A stretch of 64,000 nt of DNA from Ginglymostoma cirratum (lineage: Eukaryota): positions 31,315,572-31,379,571 of the forward strand of contig JAHRHZ010000024.1 of assembly GCA_024137785.1 (NCBI GenBank). The letters are read 5' to 3'. Shown here in pieces: positions 2,925 through 52,371 of this stretch. The notes under the pieces were generated by a model, which was not told where the DNA came from, did no database searches, and saw nothing but the letters and a program-made list of their open reading frames with translations. The first letter of the stretch is position 1. Each line of letters opens with the position of its first letter. The position numbers and the translations under genes are program-made.

Positions 2925-3842
2925 CTCCTCAGCCTCTGACGCTCCAGGGAAAATAGCCCCAGTATATTCAGCCTCTCCCTAGAGCTCAAACCCTCCGACC
3001 CTAGCTACCTCCTTGTAAATCTTTTCTGAACATTTTGAAGTTTCACAACACCCTTCCTATTGCAGGGAGACCAAAATTCCAATACTGACCTAACCAATGT
3101 CTTGTACAGCCACAACAGGACCTGCCAACTCCGATACTCAATGCACTGACCAATAAAGGTGAGCATACCAAATGCCGCCTTCATTATCCTGTCTACCTGT
3201 GACTCCACTTTCAAGGAACAATGAGCCTGCACTCCAAGGTTTATTAGTTCAGCAACATTCCCCAGGACCTTGCCATTAAGTGTACAAATCCTGCCCTGAT
3301 TCGCCTTTGCAAAATGCAACACCTCTCATTTATCCAAATTAAACTCCATCTGCCGCTCCTTGGCCATTGGTCCATCTAATCAAGATCCCATTGTGCTGAG
3401 GTAATCTTCTTAGCTGTCCACTACTCTTCCAACTTTGGTGCCGTCTGCAAACTTACTAAGCATACCTCTTATGTTTACATCCAAATCATTTATATAAATG
3501 ATGAAAAGCAGTGGACCTAGCACTGATCCTTGTGGCACACTGTTGGTCACAGGCCTCCACTTTGAAAAGCAACCCTCTATCACCACCCTCTTGCCTTTTA
3601 CCTTCAATTCTGTATCCACCTATTCCGTGTGATCTAACCTTGCTAACCAGTCTACCATAAGGAATCGTGTCAAAAGCCTTACTGCATTCTATTGTCCACT
3701 GCTCTGCTCTCATCAATCCTCTTCATCACTTCTTCAGAAAACTCAATCAAGTTATTGAGACATGATTTTCCACCACAAAGCCATGTTGACTATCCCTAGT
3801 CAGTCCTAGCCTTTCCAAATCCATGTAAATCTTGTATCTCTT
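2925..3842 (-). mobile_element. CR1/HER1 LINE RT fragment
   Basis: [41 protein letters not shown] and LYKTLVR are spread over frameshifted ORFs. Confidence 0.92.
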
Positions 3843-6675: not shown

Positions 6676-7030
6676 GGGGAGGTGATGGCTTAGTGGTATT
6701 ATCACTGGACTGTTAATCCAGAGACGCAGATAATGTCCAAGGGACCTGGGTTTGAATCCTGCCATGGCAGATGGTGGAATTTGAATTCAGTAAATATCTG
6801 GAATTAAGAGTCTAAGGCTGACCAGGAATCCATTGTCGATTGTTGGAAAAAACCCATCTGGTTCCCTAATGTCCTTTTAGGGAAGGAAATTGTCATCCTT
6901 GCCTGGTCTGACCTACATGTGACTCCAGACCCACGGCAATGCAGTTGACTCTTAACTGTCCTCTGGGCAATTAGGGATGGGTAATAAATGCTGCCTAGCC
7001 AGCGACGCCCTCATCCCTTAAATAAATAAA
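6676..7030 (+). mobile_element. tRNA-headed SINE (here 'family S'), full length; shares head and tail with the LINE at 49253
   Basis: A-box TGGCTTAGTGG at 6686-6696 and B-box GGTTTGAATCC at 6749-6759. Tail gggcaattagggatgggtaataaatgctgcctagccagcgacgccctcatccc(taaa)n. Confidence 0.88.
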
Positions 7031-7514
7031 GGAAAAAAATGGCTTTAGCTGAAGGCGAGTATGGCACAGAGGTCTGTATGATGCGATGGCGTCACGGGAA
7101 CCACAGCACGTGGCAAGAATCCATTCAGAAATAGCAGTTCCTATATTTAACAGTTTGACTGCTCTATAGTTGTCACACTCCAACTTTGGGTAGAGACTGA
7201 GGCGTGCAGATTTGTGATTGGAGTGGGGAAGGAGTCTCATTTAAGATGTCATGCTACCTACCTTGGGTGTTGAAAATTACAGGCATTAGACAAGATGAAA
7301 TAGAAAAAACTTGGCAAAAGTATGATGGAAATACTTCTGCATCAAGTAAGTTTTTGACAGTAAGGAATGCGTGCCAATTCAAGTTTCGTTTAATTTGTTC
7401 ATGGGATGTGGGTGTTTTTGGCTAGACCAGTACTTACTGCCCATCGCAAATTACTTTAAGAACATGGAGAACTGCCTTTTTGAGCTGTTGCACTCCTTGG
7501 GGTGTTGGAGTAGA

Positions 7515-9580: not shown

Positions 9581-11644
9581 CAGTCTATCCAATCTCTCTT
9601 CATAAGTAAAATTCTCCGGACCAGTGAAAATCCTGGCATATCTCTTATGTACCCTCTCCAGTGCAATCACGTCTCTCCAACAATGTAGATTCTAGAACTG
9701 CACATAGTACTCTACTCTAGCTGGTGCCTAACCAATGTTAGTTAAGGTTCCAACATAACATCCCTCCTCTTAAACTCTGTTCCTTGACCAATTAAGGCAA
9801 GTATCCCATGTGCTTTTTTAACCACTTTATCCAACTGCCTGGATGCCTTAAGGCACCATTGGACCTGCACATCAAGGTCCCTCCAATCCTTGTTGCTTCC
9901 CAGGATCCTACCATTCAATCATTTGCAGGATCCAATCATTTACGATTGGTCAAGACAAACAAGGCATCATCTCACATTTACCTAGATTGAATTTCATTTG
10001 CCATTGATCAGCCCATCTGACTAACACATCTATATCCTCTTGTAATCTAAGGCTATCCTCACAATTTATCTCCCCGACCCCACCAGTTTTCATATCATCT
10101 GCAAACTTACTGATCAACCTTCCTTCATTCAAGCCTAAATCATTTATATATACCATAAATAGCAATGGCCCCAACACTGATCTCTTTGGGACCCTCCTGA
10201 ACACAGGCTTCAAGTTTCAAAGTCACCACTTGACCACTACCTTGTGCGCCTTGAACCAATTCTGTATCCAATTAGGCAAATTTCCTGGGATCCCATGGGC
10301 TCTTACATTTGCAAAGAACAAGTTTGGTTTTTCAGTTAATCTCTCAGTTCATCTAGTAAACTTTTCTTATGTCTACTTCACTAGTGTCCATGTATATCTT
10401 TATGATGTGGAATCCAGAACTATTCACAGTACTCTTAAGTGTGCTTTAACCAAGATTCTGTGCACACCTTCACTGTTATTAAATTCTTCCTTCTAGAAAT
10501 GAACCCCAGTGATTTCTTTGTTTTTTAAATGATCTCTTTATTAATCTACAGTGCTATGTGGAGTGTCAGTGTGTCCTGATATACGAATATGTTCAGCCTG
10601 ACTCCCTACTGCCACAATTAACTTAGGGTCTTAAGCACTCCCTCTGGGACAAGAGGATTCAGGACAGCAAGTAAAAGCTAGCAAGGTTTGACATTGGACA
10701 TTTCTACATTGAGTGTCCTTAAAATGTAGAATGGACATTCAATGAGTGGAAGTTAAACCCCTGGGATTGTTAAGAAACTGTTGGACACTAGAGCAACAGG
10801 ACTTAGTTTCTGCTTGAGCTAAGATGACTCAGTGGCAGTTTCTGAAAAAGTTTTTTTTTGAACGTTAAGTTGTTTGGATGAGGAGATGTGCAAAATGAAG
10901 CTGCATTGTTTTGTTAATTGGAAATTCATTTTGGTTTGCAATTTCTTTCACTGTGTTTCCTGATTTTGAGCCTAGGGAAACCTCATGAAATAGGTAGTAT
11001 GACCATGTTGACAACCTCAGTATTATTTCTCTACCTTGCCTTCACGGGTGTGGCCACTGTTAAGTGCATCATCATCAATAGCAAGGAAATCTAGGGATGG
11101 ACCATCAGGGCCTGGCAAACTGCACATTTCCCTGCCTTCTAACATCACTGATTCTGCCAGACTTTAGGTGCTGATTGTGAAACTTCTCCATTCCACTAGC
11201 ATTTGTGCCCTTCCCTTTTTGGCTAAAATCTAGCGTTAGGCCTACAGACTGCCCAAGCCTTTCATGGTTTCATAAGCCTCTTGTCTTTTTTTTCCATTCT
11301 TTGTTTATGTTCCCTGTCCCTAATCTATTTTTGCCACCACTCACCACCACCACCTCCAACTTGAGTTGGAATTCAGTCTAGACCGAGGTCATAAAACATT
11401 ATACTCAGTGCTGGTCAATAAAGGAGTACATCAATATAGTAGAGTCTGTCCTGTCCATTGTGGTTACTAGCACACCACATGTTTAAGTTAAACATACCAG
11501 TGGAAATATTTATGTAAAAAAAATTGATCCTCAAGGCAGTTTTGATTGGCTTTTATCAAGTAGTGGATTTGGACTTTGGCAAAACTGGAATGACTCCACT
11601 GGGCATCCCACAATTTCATAATGCGACTGCTTTGGCAAGATGAG

Positions 11645-15541: not shown

Positions 15542-16589
15542 TTTTGCAGCACCTGGGCAATAATTTTGCCATAAGTACAGTAACTACTGGATAAACTCAG
15601 CAGATCTGGCAGCATCATTGGAGAAAGAAACAGAGTTAATATTTTGAGTCCAATATGATGATTCTTCTTGAAGGTAGGCCAGCATTTATTGCCCACCTGT
15701 AAGGCTCCACTGGATTTGTGGTCATCATTAAACTCCTAATTCCTGATTTCTTTTTTACAGTAATCATTAGACTCTTATTTCCAGATTTCACCTTATTGAA
15801 TTCAAATGCTGCTATCTACCAAGATTCCCCAGAACATTACCAAGATCACTAGATTAATAGTCTAATATTAATGAATGCTAGGTCATCGCATGCCTAATTG
15901 AGGTTAATCAAAGAAATTGAATTGTAACTAATTTTTGCTAACTTGTAATGTAGTCAGGTGATTTCAGGTTTCTGCAGTGATATGATTATTTTTGTTTATC
16001 AAAAATCACCAGTTAGGCCTTGTTGTGCTGTACACTTTTGAAGTCTGCTTTATAATTTTGCAGGTTCAGTCATGCAATTTTTTTGTGGATCCTTTTTCAG
16101 GCCATGATCCGTTGTGAGCTCATCGGTTTGAATTTTAATTTTAGAAAACAACTGTATTGCTGACTAAATTGCTCATGAAGAACCCATTTATTGCAGTCTA
16201 TCCGCAACAAGCGTCCCATTGTCTAAGTACTGTACCAAAAAATTAAGGTGGCAAAGCTGCTTTTACAGTAATCCTCTGCCCAGTGAATCTGCCAAAGAAA
16301 GAATTTGCATCTTATGAACCAAATTAATTGAGACACCCTTGAGGCTTAATGCATTAACTAATCAAATATCCCATTGATTTATTGAGCTTTTCATATCTCT
16401 ACATGCTTTAGCTGTGAGGGTGAATATACCACCAGGCCTAACTTATTGGAAAAGATAATGAAAAGACCTGCCCACTGGCAATTGTGTCTCTCATCCCTGA
16501 TGCATTTATATGCTACCTGGATGTCAAGGGCAATTATTTTCCTATTGCCTCTTGAGTTCACCTATTTTGTCCATTTTTGGAACAGGGTT

Positions 16590-17210
16590 GTAACGTAGTC
16601 ATGAAGTTAGCAGCTTTGTGTAACCCAAACCGAGCAGGTTGTGGCTGTCTAAGTGCAGCTTGGTAGTGTTGTGTCATCACTTTTTATCACTTTACTGAGG
16701 CAGAGTAGACTGATGAGGTGGTAATTGGTGTGATTGGATTTGTCCTGCCGTTTTTGGATATGGTAATTTTCTGTATTGTCGACTGAATGCCAGTGTTGGG
16801 ACTGCACTGAATTGGCCAGGTTAGGGGCTCAGTTGGTTCTGGAACACAAGTCTTCAGCACCACTGATGACACTCTCAGCATTTGCTGCATCCAGTTTTGT
16901 CAGCTACTTCTTGATATCATGTAGAGCAAATTGAGTTGGCTGAAATCTGGCATCTCTGTTGGCAGAGACCAAATGGATCATTTACTTGACATTTCTGCCT
17001 GAAGATCACTACAACTACTTCAATCTTAACTTTTGCACTAATGAGCTAGGATCTGCCATCGTCGATGGGAGGGGCTTTGTTTTTATTTGATATGCATGTG
17101 GGACATGAGCATCACTGGCTGGGCCAGCATTTATTACTCATCCTTAGTTGCCATTCAGAAGGTGATGGTGAGCTGCCACCTTGAACTGCTGCAGTCCATG
17201 TACCCATGCA
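16590..17210 (-). mobile_element. Fragments of the SINE-headed LINE family (internal piece plus 3' tail)
   Basis: VVLKTCVPE in ORF 16687..16890 corresponds to 50900-50930. The inverted tail gtgggacatgagcatcactggctgggccagcattta is near 17100. Confidence 0.7.
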
Positions 17211-19624: not shown

Positions 19625-19950
19625 TTATGTCAGTAGTGTATACGTTATGTTGGCAGTGCACCATCTACAGCATACACTGCAGGTCCACAGCACCTTCCAT
19701 TTGCAATCACTTCCATCTAGAAGAACAAGGGCAGCAGATGCATGGGAACACCACCACCTGCAAGTTCCCCTGCAAACAGCACACCATCCTCTCTTGGAAA
19801 TATATTGCTCATTTTTCACTGTTGTTGGATCAGAATCCAGAAGATCCCTTCCTAACATTATGGACATCCCTGCAGCAAATGGATTCAACAAATTCAAGGG
19901 TGTAATTAGGGATGGGCTGTAAGTGCTGGTCTAGCCAATGAAATGCACAC
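19625..19950 (+). mobile_element. 3' fragment of the SINE-headed LINE family
   Basis: ADAWEHHHLQVPLQ reading and the tail align with 51995-52340. Confidence 0.85.
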
Positions 19951-22535: not shown

Positions 22536-23421
22536 TGTATCACTGAATACTCAATGCTTCATGCCCTAATGAGTGTGAGTCAGCATTGCAAGGTTGTTAC
22601 GACGTAAAAGTGTCGCCGAAAAGACTGGGCCGTGTGCACATTTCCATCGGATCAGGGAAATATCAGTGTCTTGTCACATTATTGCAACTAGCAATGTAGC
22701 ACTCCTTGTACTACAGTGCTACTGACTATCACACATCAACCATGGTTTGCAGTTAAAACAGAAAACATTCAGCAGCTCATATATCATCAATTCACGGACC
22801 TTTCATCACAACTAGATGAACATGCACCACTAAACGCCTTTCACTAAATACTTACATGGGGCGACTACAGATCTCCAAAAGGTGGCTTTGGGATGAATAC
22901 TTCACAGGAATATCAGGCACCCATCTTTTAATGTTTTTAAACATTAGACCCCTCTCTGTATCTTACATTGCAGACAAAATTCAGAGGCACCCATGTTGAT
23001 GTCTCTTAATTGTTCAGTTCCTCTGGAGAAGACAACCAGGGGAAATGTGCATAGACAGATGTGTGAGGAAGTCTGACACAAGGCTTCTTACCCTCTTCAT
23101 GGAGCAAGCAACTGAACTCTGAACTCCCAGGAGAGGAAGGGAAAGGTGCCTGTGTCAAAGGGAACATTGGATATTTACAGCCTTGTAGTGAAGAAGTCTT
23201 CAAGCAGCTACTTCCAGGTGCACATCAAACACTAATGTCTTGATAAAATATTGAGTAAAGCTGGCAGCTCGCAACAATAATACATAATTATTTTCTTATA
23301 GAGCCTTCAGATTCTATTCCTAAACCAAGGCAAAAAACAGAAGAGCCCTGGCCTCAATGCCGTTCTCTACCAGCATCTGGAGCACACCTTTCAGGAGGCA
23401 CAGTTATGAATCACAAAGGAT

Positions 23422-23788
23422 GGGAGGTTGCAGCCTTGTGGTCATATCACTGGATAGTAATCCAGCTCCCCAGGCTCATATTTCTGGGAACTTGGGATGG
23501 AATCCCACCATGGGAAATGATGAAATTTGAATTCAGTAAAAATCTGGGCTTTAGAGAAAAGCTGGTCCAATGGCAACCCATGAATTGTTGCAAAGACCCA
23601 TCTAATTCACCAATGACCTTCAGGGGAGCAAAACTTTCCACCCTCACCTGGTTTGGCCTAGATGTAGACTAAACTAAAAGGTTGACTCTCAACTGTCTTC
23701 TAAAAAGGCCTAGGTCAGCTCAAAGGCAGTTAACATGGGCAAAATATACTGGCCTTGCTGGTGACACCCACATCCCATACAAGAATGA
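23422..23788 (+). mobile_element. tRNA-headed SINE family S, older full-length copy
   Basis: Collinear with 6676-7030, with ~20 nt extra before the tail. Confidence 0.8.
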
Positions 23789-24739
23789 GGAAAGTACAGT
23801 CAAGGTCTTCCTCCACACACGTCACTGGTGCAGAGATTTTCACCTTAGCAGGAAGTGTGTCTGGAGTGGTCTTGGGGTCACGTTCTGGTGAGCAAAGCAC
23901 TGATGGAGTGGATGTGGGGTTGGCGTCGGCAGAGCGTGTGGAGAAGAGCTTCCTGATAATTCCATTACAAACAGTGAACCTCCACACTAGCCCATTGGTC
24001 AATCAACAGAGATGTGTAGGCCTGCATGGGACAATCTGGTAGAAGTGCCAACAATCTCACATTAACTGGGTGAAAGGAAGAGACATTTGGTCTGATCTTA
24101 TTGCTCTGACATGAAAGCACCTGGCTTGATTTGTGGACAGGCTGGCGCTGCCATGGAGAGACAGGTCCTGCAGAGAAATCCATGTACAGAGACCTTTGCT
24201 CCACCTCTCAGGCCACAGATGAACTCATTTGCTATCTAGTAGAAAGACAGGGGCAGTCATGGCAGTTTAATTTCCTTTCGCTTACCCTGGCCCTTGCAGG
24301 AAGTAAGTATGTGCCATTGCACATTGACAGAGAGGAGGAATAATAGTGAGGTATCCAGGGATTGTCATCTCGGAACAGTCCAATGGCTCCCTGTTTGGGA
24401 AGGGACATTCGAGAAAGCAGTTGTGCAGTATGTAAGTGTTCTGACTGATTCCTGGATAATGAGTATATATCAATGTAGCCTGCAGTGACTGATAAGCAGG
24501 ATATTGGCGAAGTGAAGTTGCCTCCCATTCAGGAATCTGGCTGGATGAGGCCATGGTGCTCTGAGCACCATCTGGATATATTAGTCCATCCTTTGCACCT
24601 GAGAAAACGCGACATGGCCAGAACTCCAACCGCTCAGATACCCTATTTGTCCATTGTTCCTCCCTTCCTCCTCCTCTTAATTTTAGTGGTACTGCAGCTG
24701 GATCAAGTTGGTTAAACGTCTGGCAGGGAAGTACTGATA

Positions 24740-30549: not shown

Positions 30550-30780
30550 TTCCCCTCCAAGGCAGACACCATCCTGATTTGAAGCTGAATCGCCATTCCT
30601 TCACTTTTGCTGGGTCAAAATCCTGGCACTCCTTTCCTGATAGCACTTTGGGTATCCCTATGCATCAAGGACTGCAGCAGTTGAAGAAGGCAGTTCATCA
30701 CCACCTTCTCTAAGGCTGTGGGTGATGTGTAACAAACACTACCTTATCTAGTAGTGCCAACATCCTATGAACAAATACTA
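30550..30780 (+). mobile_element. 3' tail fragment of the SINE-headed LINE family
   Basis: gggtcaaaatcctgg...ggactgcagcagttgaagaaggcagttcatcaccaccttctc aligns with 52140-52360. Confidence 0.8.
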
Positions 30781-31004: not shown

Positions 31005-32030
31005 GTCCAGTGGCTAAAAGCAAGGAATTATACAGTTCCAGGAGATCTCCATAAGATTTCCTCAGGATAAATGTTTTCTAATTGACCTGTTTGGTGACAT
31101 CATTATATAGCTGCTGGAGTAGGTGGGACTTGAACCTAGACATCCTCGCTCAGGTAGGGGTAACACCATAGAACTATAAGATCCCCAGCCCCTCAATGTA
31201 GTGCCCTGGGCCCAACCTTCGTCAGCTGCTTCATCAGTAATTTATCCTCCATCATTAGGTCAGAAGTGGGGATGTGCAATTGTCAGCAAAGTTCGGCACA
31301 ATTAGTGAGTAGCAAGTGCTAGGTACAGGCCATCCCCAACAAGTGAGAAAACAAATTTTACACCTTGACTTTCAACAATATTACCAGGTTGGATTTCCCA
31401 TTACCTACATCCTGGTGGCTGTCATTGACCAGAAGGGGAACTGGACCAGCCATATACATACTATGTACATGAACAATTCAGAGGCTGGGAATCCCGCAGG
31501 AAATAAGTCAACCCCTGACTCCCCAAAGCTTGTTCTCTACCTTTAAGGCACCAGTCAGGAGTGTGTGGAATACTCCATACTTGCCTGGATGATTTCAGCA
31601 CTAACAACACTCAAGAAGCTTGATAGAATCCAGAACAACCACAAGCATTCACTCCCTTCACCACTAGCACTCAATAGCAACAGTGTGCCCTAACTCCAAG
31701 TTGCACTACGGAGATTCGCCAGGGCTCCTTCGAAAGCACCTTCCAAACCCTGTACCTGCCTCATCTAAAAGGACAAGAGCAGTATAACAACAGCACTACC
31801 TACAAGTTCCCCTTTAAGCCACATACCATCCTGACATTGAACTGTATCGCAGTTCCTTCATGTCATTGGGTCGTAATCCTGGGTCAGTCTCCCTAATACC
31901 ACTGTGGGTGTCCTTACCCCCATAAACTACAGTGGCTCAATAAGTGGCTCACCACCACCACCTCAAGGCAATTAGGGATTGGTAATAAATGCCGATCCAG
32001 CCAGCAACATCCACACCTTGTGAATCAGTT
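31005..32030 (+). mobile_element. RT-to-tail fragment of the SINE-headed LINE family, interrupted by a SINE head at ~31075-31190
   Basis: cagctgcttcatcagt...catcattaggtcagaagtggggatg and the downstream sequence align with 51380-52360. Confidence 0.85.
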
Positions 32031-46397: not shown

Positions 46398-47249
46398 GGA
46401 TGTTGCAGGTTACAGAGGGACAAAGATAAGCTGCAGAGCTGGGCTGAGAGGTGGCAAATGGAGTTTAATGCGGAAAACTGTGAGGTGATTCACTTTGGAA
46501 GGAGTAACAGGAATACAGAGTACTGGGCCAATGGTAAGGTTCTCGGTAGTGTGAACGAGCAGAGAGATCTCAGTGTCCATGTGCATTGATCCCTGAAAGT
46601 TGCCACCCAGGTTGATAGGGTTGTTAAGAAGGCATATGGTGTGTTAGGTTTCATTGGTAGAGGGATTGTATTTTGGACCCATGAGGTCATGTTGCAGCTG
46701 TACAAAACTCTGATGCACCCGCACTTGGAGTATTGCGTACAGTTCTGGTCACCGCATTATAGGAAGGATGTGGAAGCATTGGAAAAGGTGCAGAGGAGAT
46801 TTACCAGGATGTTGCCTGGTATGGAGGGAAGGTCTTATGAGGAAAGGCTGAGGGACTTGGGACTGTTTTCGTTAGAGAGAAGAATGTTAAGAGGTGACTT
46901 AATAGAGACATACAAGATGATCAGAGGATTAGATAGGGTGGACAGTGAGAGCCTTTTTCCTCGGATGGTGATGGCTATCACGAGGGGACGTAGCTTTAAA
47001 TTGAGGGATGATAGGTGTAGGACAGATGTCAGAGGTAGATTCTTTACTCAGAGAGTAGTAAGGGCGTGGAATGCCCTGCCTGCAACAGTAGTAGACTCAC
47101 CATCTTTAAGGGCATCTAAATGGTCATTGGATAAACATATGGATGATAATGGAATATGTAGGTTAGATGGGCTTCAGATTGGTTTCACAGGTCGACGCAA
47201 CATCGAGGGCCGAAGGGCGTGTACTGCGCTGTAATGTTCTATGTTCTAA
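46398..47249 (+). mobile_element. Young 5'-truncated CR1/HER1 LINE
   Basis: ORFs 46374 and 46641 share a frame with one stop (46587-46589): WAERWQMEFN...HLEYCVQFWSP...RFFTQRVVRAWNALP; (atgttct)n tail. Confidence 0.95.
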
Positions 47250-49252: not shown

Positions 49253-52200
49253 GGGGAGGTGATAGCCTCATGGTTTTTATTGCTAGATTATAAATCCAGA
49301 AACTCAGTTAATTGTTGGGGGACCCAGATTCAAATCCGGCCATGACAGGTAGTGGAATTTCATTTCAATAAAATATATCTGTAATTAGGAATCTACTGAT
49401 GACCATGAAACCATTTGTTGGAAAACTCATTTGGCTCATGAATGTCCTTCAGGGAAGGAAATCTGCCATCCTCACCTATTTTTGACTACTTGTTACTCCA
49501 GACCCACAGTAGTGTGGTTGACTCTCAAATGCACTGAAATGGCTGAAGAAGCCACTCAATTGTATCATTTGCTACAAAATTTCAGCAAAGAATTGAAACT
49601 AGACAGACCACCTGGCATTGGAAAGGACAATGGCAGAAGCAGCCCTGTCAGCCCCACAAAGTCATCCTCACTAACATCTAGTGCCAAAATTGGGACAGCT
49701 GTCTCTCAGCCTAATGAAACAAAAGCCTGACATAGTCATTCTCACAGAATCATACCTCACATACTATGTCCCAGATATCACCATTCCTCGATTTGTCCTG
49801 TGCCCCAGGGAGGACAAAATCAGCAGAGGTGATGACACAGTGTTATACAGTCAGGGGAAGTTGTCTGGGAGGCCTCGACATTGTCTCTCGATCTCATGAA
49901 TTCTCATGGCTTCAGGTTAAATATGATAAGAAAACCTCCTGCTGGTTACCAGGCAACGTCCTCCCTTCACTGATCAATCAGTGCTCCTCCAAGATGAACT
50001 GAACAATTGGAGAAGGCACTGGGTGTGGCAAGGGCACATAATGCACTCTGGGATTTCAGTGCCCACCACCAAGAGTGGCTCAGCAGCAGGATAACTGACT
50101 GATCTGGTCAGGTCCTAGCGGATGTAGCTGCTAGACTTGGTTTACACCAGCTAATGACAGAACAAAGAAGAGGGAGAAATATACTTGACCTCATCCTTAC
50201 CAATCTGCTGGCTGTAGGTACATCTATCTATGACGGTATCAGTAAGAGTGACTGCCACATAGTCCTTGTTGGAGACAAAGTTCCTGCTTCATGTGGAGAA
50301 TAACCTCCATTGTCTTATGTGGCACAACAACCATGCTAAATGGGACAGACTTCGAACAGATCTCGCAACTCAAGATTGGGCATCCATAAGGCACTGTGGG
50401 CCATCAATCGTAGCAGAATTGTACTCTGGTACAATCTGCAAACTCTTAGCTCAGCATACCCCCACTTAACCATTACCACCGAGCCAGAGGATCAACCCTA
50501 GTTCAATGAAGAGTGCAGGAGGTCATCTCAGGAGCAACACCCATGTAAAACTAAAAGTGAGGTGTTGACCTGGTGGACCTGACAAAGCACGTAAGCACAA
50601 GTGGTAGACAGAGCTACGCAACAACCAACAGGTCAGATCTAGGTTCTGCAGTCCTGCCATATCTAGTCATGAATGGTGGTGGACAATTCAACAACTCATT
50701 GGAGGAACACAAATATCCCATCCTCAATGATGGAAAAGCCCAACAAGTGGGTGCAGCTAGCTTCAGCCAGAAATGCCACATGAATGATCCATCTTAGACC
50801 TTCTCTAGTTGTCCCCCGCATCACAGATACTACTTCAGCCATTTTAATTCACCCTATGTGATATTTGCAAAGGCTATAGGCCCTGACAACATTCGGGCAA
50901 TAGTGCTGAAGACTTGTGCTCAAGAACCTGTTGCTCCACTAGCCACACTTCTAGTACCACACAGCACTGGGTAAATTGCCCAGGTATGACCAGTACACAA
51001 AAAGCAGGCAAATCCAACCTGACCAATTACTGCCCCATCAGTCTACTCTTGATCATCAGTAAAGTAATGGAAGGTGTAATCAACAGTGCTATCAAGCAGC
51101 ACCTGCTCAGCAATAACCTGCTCAGTGACGGCCAGTTTGGGTTCTGCCAGGGCCACTCAACACCTTATCTCATTACACCCTTGGTTCAAACATAGACAAA
51201 AGAGCTGAATTCCAGAGGTGAGGTGAGAGTGACAGCCCTTGACATCAGAACTACATTCAACCAGGTTTGGCATCAAGAAGCCCTGGCAAAACTGGAACCA
51301 ATGGGTATCGGGGGCAAACACTCCATAGGTTGAAGTCAAACCTGACACATAGGAAGATGTTTGTGGTTTTTGGAAGTCAATCATCTCAGCTCCAGGACAT
51401 CTCTGCAGGAGCTCTTCAGGGTAGTATCCCAAGCCCGACCATATTCAGTTGCTTCATCAATGACCTTGCTTCCATCATAAGGTCAGAAGTGGGGATATTT
51501 GCTGATGATTGCACAATATTCAACACCATTTGCAACTCCCCAGATACTGAAGCAGTTCATGTTTGAATGCATTAAGGTTTGGGCACAATTGGCACGTAAC
51601 ATTTGTGCCATACAAATGCCAGGCATTGATCGTATCCAATATGAGATAATCTAACTACTACCCCATAACAATCAATGGTGTTAATATCATTGAATCCCTC
51701 ACTATCAACATTGTTGGGTAACCATTGACCAGAAACTCAACTGGACTCACCACATAAACAGAGTGGCTATGAGAACAGGTCAGAAGCTAGGAATACTGAG
51801 GCAAGTAAATTGCCTGAATCCTCAAAGCCTGTCCACCAACTACAAGGCACAAGTCAGGAGTGTGATGGAATACTCCCCATTTGTCTGGATGAGTGCAGTT
51901 CCAAAATCACTGAAGAATCTTGACACCGTCCAGGACAAAGCGGCTTGCTTGATTGACACTACATTCGCAAGTATCCACTCCCTCCACAAGTGACGGTCAG
52001 TAGCAGCAGTGTGTACTATCTACTGACGCAGTCCAGAAATTCAGCCAAGATCTTTATGCAACACTTTCCAAACCCATAACACTTCCATCTAGAAGATCAA
52101 GGGTGGCAGATACATGGGAACACCACCACCTGCAAGTTCCCCTCCAAGCCACTCACCATCCTGACTTGGAAATATTTTGTCACTTCTTCACTTTCATTGA

Positions 52201-52371
52201 GTCAAAATCCTGGAATCCCCTCCAGAAGAGTATTGTGGTTCTATCTACAGCATGTGGACTGCAGCGGTCCAAGAAGGCAACTCGCCACCACCTTCCTAAG
52301 CGCAACTAGAGACAGGTAATAAACTCTGGCTAGCCTACAACGCTCATGTCCCACAAGTGAATAAACAAAAA
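49253..52371 (+). mobile_element. Apparently full-length, decayed CR1-group non-LTR retrotransposon: tRNA-SINE head + single APE-RT ORF + tail
   Basis: The head (49253-~49560) aligns with the SINE at 6676. APE motifs: KVILTNI, PDIVILTESYL, DFSAHHQEW, ILDLILTN, SDCHIV. RT motifs: NYCPISLL..ISKVME, QFGF, ALDIRTTFNQVWHQ, QGSI..P.IFSCFINDL, FADD. C-terminus YKAQVRSVMEYS. The tail ends gtgaataaacaaaaa. Confidence 0.9.

Follow-up and report, generated by a model that had tools for sequence, protein, structure and literature searches.

A tRNA-headed Zenon LINE and its family

The window analysed here, a stretch of 64,000 nucleotides from Ginglymostoma cirratum, carries at 49253..52371 (+) what we read as a decayed full-length copy of a tRNA-headed elasmobranch Zenon LINE. 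Its first part, a tRNA-type head with SINE body (49253..49531, +), is common to a stand-alone SINE family in an alignment of SINE and LINE heads; in 288 aligned columns it agrees with the SINE at 6676-6958 at 72.6% (E 3e-37). We built a column majority from the commonest codon per column of 27 full-length copies (3289 columns). It contains both box motifs of a tRNA-type promoter: the A box at 49263..49273 (+; column shares 0.81-0.96 among the 27 copies) and the B box at 49327..49337 (+; 0.52-0.93, with the minimum at a CpG), each of them decayed in the window copy. A run of ARAGORN over the window returned no tRNA, and the tRNA model of Rfam matched the SINE copy only weakly, at 17 bits (E 0.93), under the gathering threshold. 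Downstream, a long reading frame (49538..52309, +) starts after a TGA at 49535 and spans 977 codons in the column majority; its first in-frame ATG is codon 170, which lies within the endonuclease. A conserved AUG opens a 35-codon short frame (49593..49681, +; stop at column 451), which runs out of phase across the beginning of the long frame. This AUG at 49593 is TTG in the window copy and ATG in 21 of the 27 copies, and by eye it is present in six of seven published elasmobranch Zenon 5′ ends. We placed the APE endonuclease region (49658..50320, +, end approximate) through the corresponding open frame in copy L033 (PF14529, E 6e-14; PF03372, E 5e-10) and the reverse transcriptase region (50998..51634, +, ends approximate) with copy L037 (PF00078, E 9e-15) and tblastn back to the window. 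The element closes with a 3′ tail common to the SINE and an A-rich end (52294..52371, +), for which a hairpin is predicted in sister copies; within the window this tail matches 6959-7036 at 70% (E 0.001). The window copy is dead: it lies 16.2% from the column majority and carries frameshifts and stops that break it in every frame, the long one included.

This arrangement had been described in an original prediction made from the letters alone, and we confirm the observation as a whole. The two boxes and the KVILTNI codons from 49658 are present in the sequence, no tail match follows the head, and the sole shared tail sits at the far end of the element. The prediction also held the head to be collinear with two stand-alone SINEs, at 6676 and 23422; the second of these is not a typical SINE copy, most of its closest relatives being LINE heads. 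Further old Zenon-family fragments lie in the window at 16508-17198 (-), 19708-19852, 30550-30714 and 31170-31916; in the first of these the tail stands ahead of a mid-ORF piece, which suggests two pieces or a rearrangement.

The head–ORF–tail structure of the family is fixed. We searched the 4.36-Gb genome with a query across the head–endonuclease junction and scored the best 40 of 4082 candidates; all 40 span the junction, at 74-78% apart from the self match, and 26 of the 29 other fetched loci start no more than 35 nt into the head. With an independent query of the endonuclease only (7689 candidates, best 40 scored, 30 fetched), 22 of 29 other copies reach the head, the remaining seven are cut at positions 106-334, within body or linker, and none of the 29 has a different shared 5′ end. 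A body–linker query returned 30 hits, 29 of which continue into the ORF and one of which is internally deleted. Among 40 longer fetched loci, 26 are full length (3136-3289 nt), and full-length copies have short A-rich 3′ ends, the poly-A type of end that characterizes CR1-Zenon. Copies lie at a median of 6.9% from the column majority, and no intact copy was seen among the 118 scored, the longest open stretch being 730 aa, with stops. Only ~290 nt precede the frame, leaving no space for ORF1. Contigs from four sequencing runs cover all 30 bins and are uninformative on start, strand and level. Neither a junction private to this locus nor a fetched copy with another 5′ end or an ORF1 turned up, and the predicted interpretation is supported. 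Target-site duplications, to which the prediction had also looked, are absent from the family in the 40 longer stretches examined, where the best shared words are 5-8 nt and lie away from the junctions.

By sequence, the window element matches a published family, the elasmobranch CR1-Zenon elements (PMC13343379). Three motifs from our copies match one, one and six rows of Table S2 of that paper, Zenon rows only. The published elasmobranch Zenons (RhiTyp_Zenon-1, CarCar_Zenon-1, ScyCan_Zenon-1, HypSab_Zenon-1 and SquAca_Zenon-1/2/3) share with the copies described here a single APE–RT ORF, the absence of ORF1 and an A-rich end; the published length is 3293 nt against 3289 columns here, and the first 400 nt of RhiTyp_Zenon-1 match our copies almost letter for letter by eye. 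All seven elasmobranch consensuses, from five shark and ray species, begin with the same head, and hagfish and coelacanth Zenons have another start and carry T4-T6 runs (first 400 nt, by eye in each case). The tRNA-type head is thus present in the deposited sequences and unremarked in the text, the words tRNA, promoter, polymerase and Pol III being absent from its main part; the head, the shared SINE and the terminator loss reported below are undiscussed there. The sequence family and its lack of ORF1 are already known, and the proposed mechanism and the terminator loss are new. The premise of the original prediction that ORF1 is the norm fails for these elements, as the Zenon clade is without ORF1 irrespective of the head (PMC13343379). 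Copies with an intact ORF2 have been reported in stingray (3 of 612) and whale shark (1 of 1419); Table S3 of PMC13343379 has a garbled entry (675852) for the intact ORF2 copies of SquAca_Zenon-1.

In a quick RT tree of 61 of 84 rows, from which 23 proteins were left out for short overlap and which holds no named Zenon reference, the family groups with amphioxus and moth proteins in a clade of 35 rows (SH-aLRT 98). Its RT matches the host CR1 at 33% and stands on a separate branch. Canonical vertebrate CR1, which has an esterase ORF1 or descends from elements with one, was ruled out as an identification, there being no room for ORF1 and the RT lying outside the host CR1 branch. A word-indexed protein search gave one distant hit. 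P0006 and P0009 are full-length relatives on contigs of only 3.6-4.0 kb.

Coding capacity and sense-strand T tracts

The long frame is the single stop-free frame of the column majority, and it holds both the APE and the RT domains. We compared variants by their spread among copies, with CpG-type changes excluded. Variants private to one copy have pN/pS values of 0.92-1.03 and those common to at least five copies 0.21-0.33, the latter comprising 37 silent changes, 25 replacements and two stops. This purifying selection on shared variants implies that the source elements made a working protein; together with the stop-free frame of the column majority, it supports the prediction that the element was once autonomous. 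The conserved out-of-phase ATG opens a frame over the basic N-terminus, near the Met of the full-length relative P0006. Because of this conserved ATG and the 169 codons without an in-frame AUG, we propose that translation begins at a non-standard start.

Transcription by human Pol III ends at T4 as well as at interrupted tracts, T3VT and T2VT2 among them (PMC3141230), so a 3.3-kb RNA made by Pol III must be without such tracts, on the sense strand only. The sense column majority has no TTTT and two TTT, against 13.9 TTT expected; for A, C and G the triple runs number 50, 47 and 37. On a dinucleotide expectation, the observed/expected ratio of TTT is 0.14, the lowest of the 64 trinucleotides (next 0.59), and 5-nt windows with four T are represented by no site against 7.3 expected (0/500 simulations). 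Tracts of A, C and G are at the expected level, the antisense strand has no such shortage of T tracts, and the missing classes are those at which human Pol III was shown to stop (PMC3141230). T4 on its own is borderline (P 0.014-0.18, depending on the null), the signal lying in T3 and interrupted tracts. Synonymous redrawing of the ORF gives 19.7 T3 runs, with a minimum of 10 in 3000 redraws, against the two observed; Phe is encoded by TTC and TTT at 16:1, compared with 114:77 in other C/T-ending pairs (p 0.004). In the LINE head, G or C occupies two positions at which the SINE carries TTT. Two further pile-ups made by another method, the copies of which partly overlap the first set of 27, have no site either (4/400 and 8/400 simulations).

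Other retroelements of the same genome served as controls. Two CR1 families have 19 and 17 sites and a Penelope-like family 16, against 21.4, 16.7 and 15.5 expected; these families were built by the other pile-up method and have a T content of 25-26%, against 20% in Zenon. Within the window, the controls correspond to a young canonical CR1 copy at 46410-47114 (+), with relatives at 94-95%, one of which (L156) has a 634-aa open frame to its 3′ end; to an older CR1 copy at 9965-10315 (-), at ~77% to its relatives; and to a Penelope-like element with RT at 3074-3619 (-; 15108 candidates), relatives of which carry what we take to be a GIY-YIG-like frame. In dead Zenon copies, sites reappear as divergence grows (rho 0.53, p 0.005), and the window copy has 19. 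Since dead copies gain T sites with age, mutation is not what excludes such sites. Among to-T variants, 1 of 31 shared ones and 72 of 625 private ones create TTT, which is not clearly fewer.

The Phe content of the family protein is 1.7%, compared with 1.5% in amphioxus P0005, 2.3-3.1% in other near invertebrate proteins and ~4-6% in distant ones; the Phe-poor nearest invertebrate Zenon-like proteins are P0005, P0006, P0010, P0015, P0016 and P0023, with 1.5-2.9% Phe. These sequences may mean that T avoidance is older than the head, or that the relatives are read by Pol III too. A search for headless Zenon DNA in metagenome, viral and genome contigs found no close relative and two distant loci (28-35%), which have normal TTT. 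The full-length comparison covers headed Zenon copies, and T avoidance may be a clade trait that predates the head.

The stand-alone SINE and deletion derivatives

The stand-alone SINE at 6676..7036 (+) consists of LINE positions 1-279 followed directly by the ~72 nt with which the LINE ends. Its family (39 other scored matches, at 88-89%) has diagnostic letters of its own and is on that account a separate lineage. A second, SINE-sized element at 23419..23795 (+) carries LINE-type head letters and appears to be an old internally deleted derivative; judging from its best matches, LINE heads for the most part, it seems to have arisen by a one-off deletion within a LINE copy. One-off LINE deletions with other breakpoints are seen in L199, L214, L224 and the element at 23419, and contigs of the sequencing runs join tail letters near head position 130. 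This pattern fits the birth of SINEs by internal deletion of the LINE, and the likely source of the head itself is an older SINE that a Zenon captured in the ancestor of sharks and rays. At L006, L010, L216, L217 and L237, a LINE head has a stand-alone SINE copy no more than ~1.5 kb away.

The SINE body may resemble AmnSINE2. By eye, it mismatches the Meta and Deu consensus sequences. An assignment to MetaSINE was rejected because the body mismatches the 66-bp Meta domain (by eye against the consensus in PMC7245038 Fig. S4), and a motif search of the MetaSINE supplement (all files but one) and the hagfish supplement gave no sequence match. SacSINE1/CmiSINE (PMC5499810), which are Deu/CORE SINEs with L2 tails, appear unrelated.

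Transcription of the element and comparison with known systems

We consider it likely that this autonomous Zenon LINE is transcribed by Pol III from its internal A and B boxes. The drive by a tRNA-type promoter that the original prediction had proposed is thereby backed indirectly, through the strand-specific loss of terminator-like T tracts. TFIIIC would bind the two boxes, and Pol III would start at the first G, read through 3.3 kb and end, like SINEs, at the first T run of the 3′ flank. The uncapped RNA would then be translated via a non-standard start, which is the weakest step. Efficient translation of uncapped RNA is unusual, as are Pol III transcripts of 3.3 kb. From established LINE biology, the protein would bind the 3′ tail, insert copies by target-primed reverse transcription and also mobilize the SINEs that share the tail. 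The Pol III RNA may be independent of ORF1p by analogy with Alu, which needs ORF1p when driven by Pol II and does not when driven by Pol III (Kroutter 2009, PMC2666806, in the part cited here). The full account, that of an autonomous coding element with a 3.3-kb Pol III-made RNA that is translated without a cap or in-frame AUG, has had terminators purged from its whole coding sequence, has been kept since the shark/ray split and sheds SINEs by internal deletion, seems to us on balance probable.

The same features could belong to an ORF1-less Zenon that is transcribed by Pol II and uses a captured SINE as its 5′ UTR. The boxes would then be chromatin anchors or simply carried along, and the sense strand would be poor in T for another reason, for example avoidance of U-rich decay, splice or polyadenylation signals, or inheritance from the clade. 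ORF1 is missing in all Zenons regardless of the head (PMC13343379), near invertebrate relatives are likewise Phe-poor, a tRNA-like stretch within an RTE family is on record with no Pol III claim in the passages of PMC5786205 cited here, and translation would be easier with a capped RNA. However, T tracts stay at chance level in retroelements of this genome that are presumably transcribed by Pol II, and the loss in Zenon is confined to the sense strand and covers precisely those kinds of motif at which Pol III terminates. The copies moreover share their first base with the SINE, and the head is retained in five shark and ray species, so that we regard Pol II transcription of this kind as rather unlikely.

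Translation of an uncapped RNA would be avoided if Pol III made the RNA that is reverse-transcribed and the protein came from a capped Pol II RNA, for instance by read-through from host promoters. Such a division would account for the terminator loss and the precise 5′ end, and 39% of whale shark Zenon-like copies lie in introns (bioRxiv 10.1101/443036). We think it quite improbable, however, as purifying selection is simplest if a single RNA is both message and template, and as a ribosome scanning a capped RNA would meet several upstream AUGs, none of them in-frame. A fusion that arose by chance at the locus, or a non-autonomous chimera that relies on a conventional LINE for its mobility in trans, would suit the broken state of every copy seen in the genome, and because the best candidates alone were scored, a distant parent that differs at its 5′ end may have escaped notice. 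Against either stand the same junction in all 40 scored matches and in five species, the stop-free frame of the column majority, the low pN/pS of shared variants and the small numbers of intact ORF2 copies reported from stingray and whale shark, which together make this barely credible.

The divide between LINEs and SINEs rests on the polymerase, a LINE being a Pol II message and a SINE a non-coding Pol III RNA. If Zenon is indeed transcribed by Pol III, it would cross this divide, as a coding RNA that Pol III makes in nature and that has ten times the length of a SINE. Such an element would pose a direct and testable question on cap- and AUG-independent translation, would show in a natural setting whether the requirement for ORF1p depends on the polymerase, as has been claimed, and would provide a route to SINE birth via simple deletion. 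The T-tract count could serve as a cheap screen of repeat libraries for more LINEs read by Pol III.

With tRNA-derived SINEs (SINE2) the element shares the head with A and B boxes, the precise 5′ start, the LINE-type tail and the absence of T4 from the sense strand. Unlike SINE2 elements, which are short, non-coding and non-autonomous, it is 3.3 kb long and has an endonuclease–RT under purifying selection. R2 elements resemble it in having one ORF without a start AUG and in being translated from an uncapped RNA, and differ in their endonuclease and in obtaining this RNA through ribozyme cleavage of a Pol I transcript. We found no report of an autonomous LINE read by Pol III in the literature searched, which lay outside the Repbase/Dfam notes, most subscription papers and bioRxiv supplements. 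In the passages of Kojima 2018 (PMC5786205) cited here and below, SINEs cannot encode protein and LINEs use Pol II. That paper, alone in the literature searched, names RTE-1_DAn, which with its relatives is a LINE with a tRNA-like stretch matching SINE2, as here; it differs in belonging to the RTE clade, and its single mention in those passages, as a nuisance hit, gives no position and no Pol III role. Bivalve SINEs have only their tails in common with Zenons in the part of PMC11481361 drawn on here. Bov-tA, AfroSINE and WALLSI, SINEs of RTE and Vingi LINEs, share both a 5′ part and a 3′ tail with their LINE, as here, and these bipartite SINEs are short derivatives by internal deletion, to which the deleted copies described above correspond (PMC5786205). 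In them, the tRNA head is joined onto a deleted LINE, and the LINE is taken as made by Pol II (PMC5786205), whereas in Zenon the head stands on a full-length autonomous LINE, and one of a CR1-group clade.
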